In this document: one piece after another, positions 58,967 to 61,893 of the stretch
How the letters are laid out: the number at the start of each line of letters is the position of its first letter
Numbering within the stretch: the first letter of the stretch is position 1
Origin: Longimicrobiales bacterium
Lineage (GTDB): Bacteria > Gemmatimonadota > Gemmatimonadetes > Longimicrobiales > Gaopeijiaceae
Length of the DNA: 64,000 nucleotides
Direction: 5' to 3'
Assembly (NCBI GenBank): GCA_965116905.1
Contig: OZ220732.1
Location: 2,816,001 to 2,880,000 of the forward strand
Made by a program: the position numbers and the translations under genes
Notes under the pieces: model-generated
What the model was told of the DNA's origin: nothing
The model's database searches: none
Seen by the model: the letters and a program-made list of their open reading frames with translations, nothing else

Positions 58967-59006
58967 CCGGCCCGCCTCAGTCCGCTCGGTAACCGGCCGC
59001 CTCAGT
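58956..59006. repeat. 26/25-bp tandem duplication spanning both convergent stop codons
   Basis: CCGCTCGGTAACCGGC(C)CGCCTCAGT x2. Confidence 0.9.
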
Positions 59007-60084
59007 CCATCGGGACGGTCCGCAGCACCTTTCCGGCCACGCGATCAAAGATCTCGTCGAGACTCGTCCCGGTCACCGTCAGGCCATGGTTCTTCAACCC
59101 CACAACGCACCGGTTGGGGTCATCGGCCTCGCGCACGATGTCCGCTACCGCCTTGCCGAGTTCGCGCGTGCCGCAGGGGTAGTTGAACTCCGTTGACGGA
59201 ATCCCTTCCATCCAGCCGTGGAAGTGCAGGATCGCGCCGATCCCCGGGTGCTCCCGGTAGATCATCCAGTGCTCGATCGCATCGACGGAGACGCGCCTGG
59301 GCTCCACGGCCGGCGGGTGGCTCACGACCATGGCGTTCCGTTCGGCGTCATAGTCCTTGACCATGAGAATGTCGCGACCGATTGCCCGCAGGTTCGATTT
59401 GTCGACCCCGCTGGCGCTCATCCAGAACCACTTGTCGTCGAAGCGGGCCGAAACGTTGCCGTAGGAAAGCCCGCCGATGCCGAAGATCCGCTTCACGTGC
59501 CGGAAGTCGCGTGGCGTCAGAACCTCGTCCATGGGGAAGGGCGCCGGCAACAGGTCCAGTTCGTCCAGTTTCCTGCCGGCACGGTAGATCGACCGGGTGA
59601 TGTCGTCCCCGTCCCACAATTCCTTGGGAAGATCCGGCTGGAAGGCATTGTCGATGACCAGCGTCGAGGAGGCCATGGGCTCGATCCGGGCGTAGACCCG
59701 CTCGAAATAGGCCCCGGTCTCGGCCTTGCCCGGCACCACATAGTGGCCTTGCTCCATCGTAATGAAGTGGGCGTCCGGGTCCCCGCTGGACGACGGAATC
59801 AGCCCCACGGCCAGATTGGCCAGCGCACGGAGCAGCGTGGGATAGCCCTGCACGATGTGGTCCGTGAACGGAACCGGGAACTCCGTGACCGCGCAGACGA
59901 AAACGGCCTGTGCCTTCCTTCGAAACGGCTTCGGCTGCCCTTTCGGAAAGAAGTTGAAGATCAGCTTCGCTTCCTCGGACCGGGCGGTGTAGCGGTGCCC
60001 CTCCGCCTCCATGACCCTCCGCAGCCCCCGGGAGAACCACCGGAACGTGTCGCTGTCGGGCGATCCGACGAAAGCAAATGTCAT
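59002..60084 (-). CDS. Class II aldolase/adducin domain protein with uncharacterised N-terminal domain
   Basis: GNVSAR, SVDAIEHWMIY, ILHFHG, LKNHGL. Confidence 0.8.
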   Translation of the reverse strand: MTFAFVGSPDSDTFRWFSRGLRRVMEAEGHRYTARSEEAKLIFNFFPKGQPKPFRRKAQAVFVCAVTEFPVPFTDHIVQGYPTLLRALANLAVGLIPSSSGDPDAHFITMEQGHYVVPGKAETGAYFERVYARIEPMASSTLVIDNAFQPDLPKELWDGDDITRSIYRAGRKLDELDLLPAPFPMDEVLTPRDFRHVKRIFGIGGLSYGNVSARFDDKWFWMSASGVDKSNLRAIGRDILMVKDYDAERNAMVVSHPPAVEPRRVSVDAIEHWMIYREHPGIGAILHFHGWMEGIPSTEFNYPCGTRELGKAVADIVREADDPNRCVVGLKNHGLTVTGTSLDEIFDRVAGKVLRTVPMD

Positions 60085-60260
60085 GGAAAGGATATCCTCG
60101 GTGCATGGAGTTCGCGAACCGTACAAAAGGTTCACACTAAGCGCGAGAACGCAACCCCTCGCAAAGCGGCCGTCGCTGCGCCGTGGCGTCGGACACTTCA
60201 CGCCGTGGCCTCGAACACTTCACTTTGTGACGCGTCTCTGGCTACATTTACCCCACCATG

Positions 60261-60310
60261 TCCCGCTCCGCCAGGGAAGCGGAGCCCGTCACCACACGCG
60301 GTCCGAGGGA
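60261..60310 (+). promoter_or_regulatory. Candidate S6:S18 ribosomal protein leader RNA
   Basis: Anti-SD TCCC, hairpin GCTCCGC/GCGGAGC, immediately followed by CCG, then SD GAGGGA. Confidence 0.5.
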
Positions 60311-60321
60311 GTTCCCATCGC

Positions 60322-61059
60322 ATGAGAGCGTACGAAATCGTCTACATCCTGGATTCTGCACTGGAACGGGAGGCCGTCGACGCGAAGCTCGACGCCTTCC
60401 ACCAGGTGCTTGGCGGTGACGTCACCGCCATCGACCATTGGGGTGTCCGGCAGCTGGCCTACCCCATACGGAAGTCGAAGACCGGCTACTACGTGATCGT
60501 CCATGTGGACGCCGATCCCACTGCCCTTCCCGAGTTCGAAAGGGTGGTCAAGCTGGACGAGGAGACCACCCGGTATCTGGTCGTCGTCAACGAAGGCCAG
60601 CCCACGACCGGTGCTTCACTGCTGGCGGACCGCCCCCCTCCGCCGAAGCCGGAAGACGATGGGGACGAGGCCGGGGACGGTGAGAGCGGCGGCGAGAGCG
60701 GCGGCGGTGAAGCCGGCGAGCGCGCGGGCGGGAACGGCGCGACCGGAACCGGTGAGGCTGCCGAGGCCTCGGCGGGCGACGCCACCGAAACCGACCAGCC
60801 CGCCGAACCGCCGCAGTCGACCGGTCCGCCGGAGTTTTCCGGGGCCCGGGGGCGCCGCCGCCGCCACGAGGGGCCGCCGATCGTGCTGCTCAACTACAAG
60901 GACGTGACGACGCTGGCCCGCTTCCTGACGGAACAGGGCAAGATCCTGCCCAAGCGAACCACCAAGGTCTCGGCCCGCTTCCAGAGGCGGCTCGGCACCG
61001 CCGTCAAGCGCGCGCGGCACATCGCCCTTCTCCCGTACATCAGGGATCACGAGGCCTGA
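60322..61059 (+). CDS. rpsF-rpsR: Fused 30S ribosomal proteins bS6-bS18 (245 aa)
   Basis: S6: MRAYEIVYIL, WGVRQLAYPI, GYY, RYLVV; acidic Gly/Pro linker; S18: NYKD...RFLTEQGKILPKR...QRRLGTAVKRARHIALLPY; one frame with no stop. Confidence 0.92.
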   Translation: MRAYEIVYILDSALEREAVDAKLDAFHQVLGGDVTAIDHWGVRQLAYPIRKSKTGYYVIVHVDADPTALPEFERVVKLDEETTRYLVVVNEGQPTTGASLLADRPPPPKPEDDGDEAGDGESGGESGGGEAGERAGGNGATGTGEAAEASAGDATETDQPAEPPQSTGPPEFSGARGRRRRHEGPPIVLLNYKDVTTLARFLTEQGKILPKRTTKVSARFQRRLGTAVKRARHIALLPYIRDHEA

Positions 61060-61063
61060 GGTC

Positions 61064-61519
61064 ATGAAGCTGATTCTGCGCGAAACCGTCGCCAGCCTGG
61101 GACAGGCCGGCGATGTCGTAAACGTGAAGCCCGGATACGCCCGCAACTACCTTTTGCCGCAGGGACTGGCGTACATGGCCTCGGCGGCCAACATCCAGCG
61201 GATCGAGGAGGAAGCCGTCCACCGGCAGGAGCGGATGCGCCGCGACTACCTGGAAGCCAACCGCCAGGCCTCGCAGCTGGAGGAAGTCACCGTGTCGGTG
61301 TCGGCGAGAGCCGGATCCGAGGGGCAGCTGTTCGGGTCGGTCAACGCCCGCGATGTCTGGAGTCTCGTTCAGGAGGCGGACATCGACTTTGAACTGGACA
61401 AGCGGGCCATTCTCCTCGCCGAGCCGATCAAGAGCATCGGCGAGCACATGGTGCCGGTGCGGCTGCAGTCGGGGGTGGAGACGGAGATCCGGGTCGTCGT
61501 GGAGGCCGAAGAAGGTTGA
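61064..61519 (+). CDS. rplI: 50S ribosomal protein bL9
   Basis: MKLILRE, VKPGYARNYLLPQG, LFGSV, PIKSIG. Confidence 0.97.
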   Translation: MKLILRETVASLGQAGDVVNVKPGYARNYLLPQGLAYMASAANIQRIEEEAVHRQERMRRDYLEANRQASQLEEVTVSVSARAGSEGQLFGSVNARDVWSLVQEADIDFELDKRAILLAEPIKSIGEHMVPVRLQSGVETEIRVVVEAEEG

Positions 61520-61893
61520 CGGCTCCCCGGGCGGCCTCGGATACGCACCCGCACGTCCGCAGAGCCGTCCGCTACGCCCTGGAGAGGAAGGCGACCGAAG
61601 TCACGCTCCTCGACCTGCGTGACATCTCGTCGGCAACGGACTATTTCGTCATCGCCACGGGCCGCTCCGATGTACAGGTGCGGGCGATCGCCGAGCACAT
61701 TGTCGACAGCGCGAAGCGGGATGGGGCCCGTCCCGAGCACATCGAGGGCCTCGACCAGGGGCGCTGGGTGCTCCTGGACTACATCGACTACGTCGTGCAT
61801 GTCTTCCATCCGGCCGTGAGGGAGTTCTACCGGCTGGAATCGCTGTGGGGAGACGCGGTCGCAACCGTGTTCGGGCAGGACATGACGCAATGA
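61516..61893 (+). CDS. rsfS: Ribosome silencing factor
   Basis: TDYFVIATG, WVLLDY, VVHVF, REFYRLESLW. Confidence 0.95.
   Translation: MTAPRAASDTHPHVRRAVRYALERKATEVTLLDLRDISSATDYFVIATGRSDVQVRAIAEHIVDSAKRDGARPEHIEGLDQGRWVLLDYIDYVVHVFHPAVREFYRLESLWGDAVATVFGQDMTQ

Follow-up and report, generated by a model that had tools for sequence, protein, structure and literature searches.

Ribosomal proteins S6 and S18 are normally made as separate partner proteins. Ribosomal precursors that undergo processing are also known, as Prp cleaves an extension of L27 after Phe and ubiquitin-ribosomal protein precursors occur (ubiquitin-eS31/eL40). The fusion described here shares with these an extra N-terminal part on a ribosomal protein; it differs in that the N-terminal part is itself a ribosomal protein and that a search of 61 family genomes gave no Prp gene. 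A close described system is the canonical bS6:bS18 heterodimer (separate rpsF and rpsR; PDB 1G1X, 7K00), with which the locus shares both complete domains, the S6 fold, the KRAR motif and the order rpsF-rpsR-rplI; where the heterodimer consists of two chains, there is here one gene with an acidic linker of 27-169 aa and a new S18 N-terminal arm. Upstream of rpsF, the described S6S18CBM consists of a hairpin and a bulge, with an unpaired CCR located 2-3 nt before a Shine-Dalgarno (SD) sequence that lies in a paired region (PMC3854524).

The fused rpsF-rpsR gene was found in a 64,000-nucleotide stretch of DNA, referred to as the window, and lies on its forward strand, as do all features below unless stated otherwise. 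It occupies 60322..61059 and was claimed in the preliminary description of this DNA to be a single uninterrupted 245-aa ORF holding a complete S6 and an S18 core, which is borne out by a stop-free translation and by matches to both profiles. Pfam S6 is matched at aa 4-88 (PF01250, E 2.6e-23, 82.5 bits against a cut-off of 27) and Pfam S18 at aa 190-237 (PF01084, E 6.2e-20, 71.5 bits against 21), and the NCBIfam equivalogs also score over their cut-offs, TIGR00166 at aa 1-91 (69.1 against 42.9) and TIGR00165 at aa 187-242 (73.5 against 38.75). The bS6 domain (aa 1-92; 60322..60597), for which a model of a short family member fits solved S6 chains to 1.2-2 Å, is followed by the conserved start of an old S6 tail (aa 93-99, QPTTGAS; 60598..60618), corresponding to EGEPT.. 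in unfused sisters. Next is a variable, acidic, Gly/Pro/Ala-rich linker of 69 aa, predicted from alignment and model to be disordered (60619..60825), then a derived S18 N-terminal arm, PPEF-SGARGRRRRHEGPPIVL, which by motif counts stands in place of the start Met and of the CxxC zinc knuckle (60826..60888), and finally the profile-matched bS18 core with its rRNA-binding KRAR motif (60889..61059). This motif is KRAR in 149 of the 151 fused genes counted and KRSR in the other 2.

By profile match, the separate gene rplI (bL9; 61064..61519) begins 4 nt downstream of the fused gene, directly after it as had been reported, and rsfS (61516..61893) overlaps the rplI stop, giving the order fused rpsF-rpsR, rplI, rsfS, smc. 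The genome, a single contig and 97% complete, yields one S6 and one S18 match, both inside the frame 60322-61059; the two separate genes of the canonical heterodimer are thus represented by one frame, the sole S6 and S18 gene. A second free rpsR, which the preliminary description had advised looking for, was not found, nor was a second rpsF (one match for each profile in the 97%-complete genome). Its remark that no ssb or priB gene intervenes is accurate but unrelated to the fusion, as the rpsF-rpsR gap is at most 135 nt in 87/87 unfused loci outside the family. On the opposite strand, divergent from the rpsF promoter region, 59002-60084 encodes a class II aldolase/adducin-domain protein whose long N-terminal part has no Pfam family.

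The fusion is a real natural gene and is inherited. It is accepted as real because it is conserved in relatives and is read through by contigs of other studies, and assembly error is ruled out by this conservation together with the independent contigs (runs X1-X3). The open frame of the linker is weak evidence alone, the DNA being GC-rich, with the +1 frame also open in the window and in 110/151 fused genes and the +2 frame in 34/151. In run X2 one contig crosses the whole stretch; it lacks 12 bases of the linker, which keeps the frame, and differs further in the gene by a single silent change. In runs X1 and X3, the former of which may be the source sample, contigs tile the stretch with no frameshift. 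The test was made at the level of contigs, and raw reads taken from X21 failed to map to the locus. Among public runs that name a source, the best matches are metagenomes of sponges.

In further examining its distribution, "the family" denotes the family of the window organism (Longimicrobiales, Gemmatimonadota). A check of relatives with the S6 and S18 profiles, proposed in the preliminary description, gave both Pfam families in 120/120 homologues examined (the best 120 of 1604), those with a named taxon being Gemmatimonadota and related loci being mostly titled Longimicrobiales or Gemmatimonadota. In an even order-wide draw, the S18 locus was examined in all 50 family genomes of the draw plus the window, and the genes were fused in 51/51, whereas they were separate in 87/87 scorable loci of other Gemmatimonadota families (one of the 87, L035, is from the unpublished genome G452, and one further non-family locus with no S6 in its stretch was left unscored). 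A wider search reached 314 family genomes; all 11 with open frames under 200 aa among 150 of 301 matches listed were inspected along with others, and in the resulting 98 genomes, 11 of them chosen for their short frames, 90 loci are fused, 4 are cut by a contig end, 2 are separate, 1 is frameshifted and 1 is foreign-looking. The rpsF and rpsR genes are truly separate in G585 and G586, the junction of G587 is of the fused type but carries a frameshift, three genus mates being fused, and the foreign-looking case, G721, is an AT-rich contig with rpsF-ssb-rpsR. The rpsF-rpsR loci L225 (G721) and L046 (G477) are unlike those of Gemmatimonadota and are probably bin contamination. As judged from these loci, the fusion is fixed across nearly the whole family.

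Fused proteins outside the family were sought by a profile search over 1.84 billion representatives, with counts taken from the 150 matches listed. An earlier set, obtained by a word search for long S18 proteins and comprising 17 of 120 listed with both domains, was not counted as real: those inspected resembled frameshift products in which S18 retains its own start, and 9 of the 10 looked up were singletons. P0195, P0162, P0192 and P0229, in which S18 is joined to L9 or SSB, are likewise probable frameshift artefacts. Among the 150 matches listed, at least 43 representatives outside the family are full two-domain S6-S18 proteins, 42/43 of which have no zinc motifs and 16 of which have a Met near the S18 start; 13 of the 20 looked up are single-member clusters, and part of the set is probably artefactual. 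P0304, with 10 relatives at 40-79% identity that are all two-domain, represents by sequence a real protein family, and other outside fusions either group into clades (11 rows and 3 rows) or are seen again in more than one assembly. A scan of metagenomes for P0253 loci gave no match. In a tree with few columns, the outside fusions fall outside the family's clade, with unfused Gemmatimonadota in between. These unrelated fusions (the P0304 group, the P0272/P0299 group, the P0320 and P0345 groups, and P0253/P0260/P0262) are known from proteins only and share the order S6-linker-S18, but they lack the PPEF arm and their linkers are shorter and mostly non-acidic. Recurrence in unrelated lineages suggests that S6-S18 is an easy, tolerated join and not a new mechanism. 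The preliminary description knew of no described S6-S18 fusion, and indeed no published description was found in a search outside which subscription papers and supplements lay; the novelty is nevertheless lower than it had supposed because unrelated fusions recur in other bacteria. The accessible portions of PMC7203096 and PMC2837039 do not describe an S6-S18 fusion, nor is it mentioned in the accessible portion of the main text of PMC11651109, on cultured Gaopeijia maritima, and the family-level fusion is apparently undescribed in print.

The sequence joining the two domains was analyzed in 151 distinct fused genes (L253, with an inner deletion, was left out). The linker is 27-169 aa long in 147 anchored relatives, a roughly six-fold range with a median of 39 against 69 aa in the window, and it has no conserved sequence; 42% of its residues are Asp or Glu, and its net charge runs from -44 to +1 with a median of -15. 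Linkers are longer in the genus of the window organism and its nearest kin (L143-L186; L155, L166; proteins of 224-345 aa) than in most other members (206-257 aa). At the end of this otherwise unconserved region, a PPxF-like motif followed by a Gly/Arg arm is present in 148/151 fused genes. Such unusual conservation would fit a protease site, and it is the basis for the possibility that the product is a polyprotein, cut at or near PPxF by a protease other than Prp into an acidic-tailed S6 and an S18 with a Gly/Arg-rich start, which would resemble natural S18 N-termini. The motif also falls mostly within the low-confidence part of a 206-aa model. Cleavage by Prp itself was rejected, as the gene (PF04327) was found in none of the 61 family genomes examined, where the control was positive in 3/14. 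Against processing by any protease, the three fused genes with no PPxF, among them those of one genus, are still fused, and the unrelated fusions have no PPxF altogether, some with linkers of just 8-13 aa. Processing is judged unlikely, although if true it would constitute a new maturation checkpoint in 30S assembly common to the whole family. The genus in question (L222, L224, P0247) has lost PPxF and most of the acidic run and is still fused.

The S18 part is free of Cys in 150/151 fused genes, the window included, where CxxC and CxxH are both found in 86/91 separate S18 proteins. Compared with the zinc-type (CxxC...CxxH) bS18 of other Gemmatimonadota, from which the fused S18 core appears to descend vertically, all four ligand positions are gone, and on these alignments the zinc knuckle is replaced by the PPEF-Gly-Arg arm. 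The loss of the zinc ligands, the family-wide spread and the kept leader RNA discussed below all go beyond what the preliminary description had read from the locus. Zinc loss and fusion are not strictly linked, as free zinc-less S18 occurs in 3 Gemmatimonadota loci and the two-domain protein P0419 keeps both zinc motifs. The three free zinc-less S18 genes (L019, L024, L027) belong to another Gemmatimonadota family. A family-wide purge of zinc was considered and is not supported, since among 5 genomes examined the fused G302 keeps four-Cys S14, L31, L33 and L32. The genome of the window, G000, has, outside the window, a zinc-less cluster at G000:C1:3818985-3822805 (L271, L278, L281) comprising a 101-aa S14, a long L31, a Cys-free L33 and L28, with folE2. 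Its S14, L31 and L33 are the only matches in G000, four-Cys forms being present where found in G302, G586, G027 and G266, and the L32 of G000 has two Cys only. The cluster appears to be a set of zinc-sparing proteins that has taken the place of the usual copies.

In analyzing predicted structures, the model of the window protein (36 close sequences) reached a pTM of 0.35, with the S18 half mostly below 50 pLDDT; its S6 half shows the strand-helix order of the ferredoxin-like S6 fold. The AlphaFold model of a 206-aa family member (105 sequences) reached a pTM of 0.73, with pLDDT of ~95 for S6, 80-93 for S18 and <50 for the linker, and its S6 fold superposes on 8CWO_F at 1.2 Å over 94 residues. 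The top 50 Foldseek matches of this model are all S6 chains, and no PDB sequence covers both halves among the best 60 of 157 matches. The pTM suggests that the S6 and S18 halves pack together in the 206-aa member.

A further possibility is that free S18 is made from a start inside the frame, so that the fusion would be mainly an S6 with a long extension. The preliminary description had stated that no in-frame Met separates the halves, which holds in that an inner ATG is absent, but an in-frame GTG (codon 188) is present at 60883 and is preceded at 9 nt by GAGGGG, and 65/151 genes have a start codon in frame 9 codons ahead of the NYKD motif. Only 11/151 fused genes, however, combine an SD-like motif with a start at the commonest offset, which is that of the window; 24/151 have an SD-linked start of any kind no more than 40 codons from the core, and the codon at -9 has an SD in 2. 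The Arg-rich arm ahead of these inner start codons is moreover conserved at the protein level, and separate initiation of S18 is considered very improbable.

The strongly acidic linker could alternatively be functional on the 30S platform, where, close to the exit channel, the loop would tune initiation by competition with mRNA or the 3' tail of 16S, or would chaperone the basic S18 half. Retention of the acidic charge is in keeping with this, as is the anti-SD-hiding pocket that bS6 and bS18 form in Bacteroidia according to the accessible part of PMC9976891. A placement of the loop near the mRNA exit and SD region had been inferred in the preliminary description, and a role there finds no support in the data: in a rough ORF-based count, SD-like motifs precede 104/260 operon-internal starts compared with 27/260 in a control window further upstream, the 16S end carries CCUCC, an intact anti-SD, and bS21 is present. 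With SD use persisting, there is no sign that the loop affects initiation, and SD blindness of the Bacteroidia kind is not supported by the same counts. The length of the loop also varies six-fold, most linkers in the unrelated fusions are neutral or basic, and the acidic run is older than the fusion and serves in unfused relatives as the GAGGAG ribosome-binding site of rpsR. A functional loop is accordingly held to be quite unlikely, and the reading of it as a tolerated connector is preferred.

The origin of the linker can be followed in a FastTree phylogeny of the S6 core and L9 (169 rows; linker and S18 left out), in which the fused genes form one clade (SH-like 95) and G585 and G586 form its sister (99). 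The state of fusion requires one change on this tree, compared with 56.8 with shuffled labels. In the early-branching G585 and G586, 3 nt separate the S6 stop from the in-frame ATG of a zinc-type S18, such that one in-frame stop blocks fusion. Sister lineages have an S6 tail of ~25-35 aa, with EGEPT at its start, which is kept in the fusion, and an acidic run at its end whose codons double as the ribosome-binding site mentioned above; rpsR starts -1 to +4 nt from the S6 stop with no ssb between the genes. As the unfused sisters are one in-frame stop away and the tree needs one change, the acidic S6 tail likely became the linker, in agreement with the origin proposed in the preliminary description. 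The ancestor would have had rpsF, a stop, 3 nt and rpsR in frame; the stop would have been lost, and the S18 start would then have been remodelled into the PPEF/Gly/Arg arm. The junction is 5 residues longer than in the unfused members and does not align with them residue for residue, which leaves the steps in between out of view. That a zinc-less S18 paralog was imported horizontally is not supported, as both halves group with the unfused family members (for S18, in a second tree with few columns). In another family, f7, L010, L011, L009 and L020 have unfused S6 with very long acidic tails (proteins of 180-256 aa), an expansion of the tail with no fusion.

Immediately upstream of the fused gene, at 60262..60311, is a leader RNA resembling the S6:S18-binding motif. 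In the structure drawn from the alignment, the SD is part of a basal stem, there are two hairpins, and a CCG located 2 nt ahead of the SD is unpaired. The paired SD, the CCR 2 nt before it and the position upstream of rpsF are shared with the S6S18CBM or rpsF leader (PMC3854524, PMC4647458), and in comparison an extra short hairpin in the bulge results in a three-way form specific to the family. The motif is reported to be usually missing where rpsF and rpsR are directly adjacent (PMC3854524). Under a strict pattern, the three-way leader was found in 140/150 fused loci and in three unfused or frameshifted family loci, and in 0/86 other separate (non-family or foreign) loci and 0/12886 control ATGs, counts to be read with the pattern and structure having been derived from these same sequences and the relatives not being independent. 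In the alignment, 95% of cells are paired and 4 pairs have two-sided changes, all in one helix; the window leader alone folds no better than shuffles (free energy z -0.78). A search of 16 loci with Rfam gave one chance match and none to an rpsF leader model. A possible -10 hexamer, TACATT, was noted by eye just upstream of the leader (60243..60248), and a consensus scan found no full promoter there. The family-specific three-way leader predates the fusion. KRAR, the contact of S18 to the CCG, is kept in the fused protein, and on this comparative evidence a putative S6:S18 autoregulatory leader is kept upstream of the fusion.

Taken together, the family-wide occurrence of one bS6 plus bS18 gene, the product of which is likely an ordinary S6:S18 unit in one uncut chain with the acidic tail as a predicted disordered loop, is the explanation we regard as probable from the sequences and models. 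The tether likely makes S6-S18 pairing intramolecular, and it is proposed that the need for the zinc knuckle is thereby relaxed. The sole copy and the kept motifs suggest that binding of the fused chain to the S15-primed 16S junction would take the usual course, and excess chain may bind its own leader and shut off translation of the operon. The acidic loop is likely tolerated rather than functional.

The fusion presents a textbook pair of ribosome assembly in a natural single-chain form. As unfused sisters with a zinc-type S18 are one stop codon away, it can be tested directly whether fusion or zinc loss came first and what a covalent tether costs. Database entries for the fused proteins carry the S18 name or the S6 name only, and the fusion can mislead pipelines in which S6 and S18 serve as separate markers; it also provides a clean marker that covers most of one large Gemmatimonadota family.
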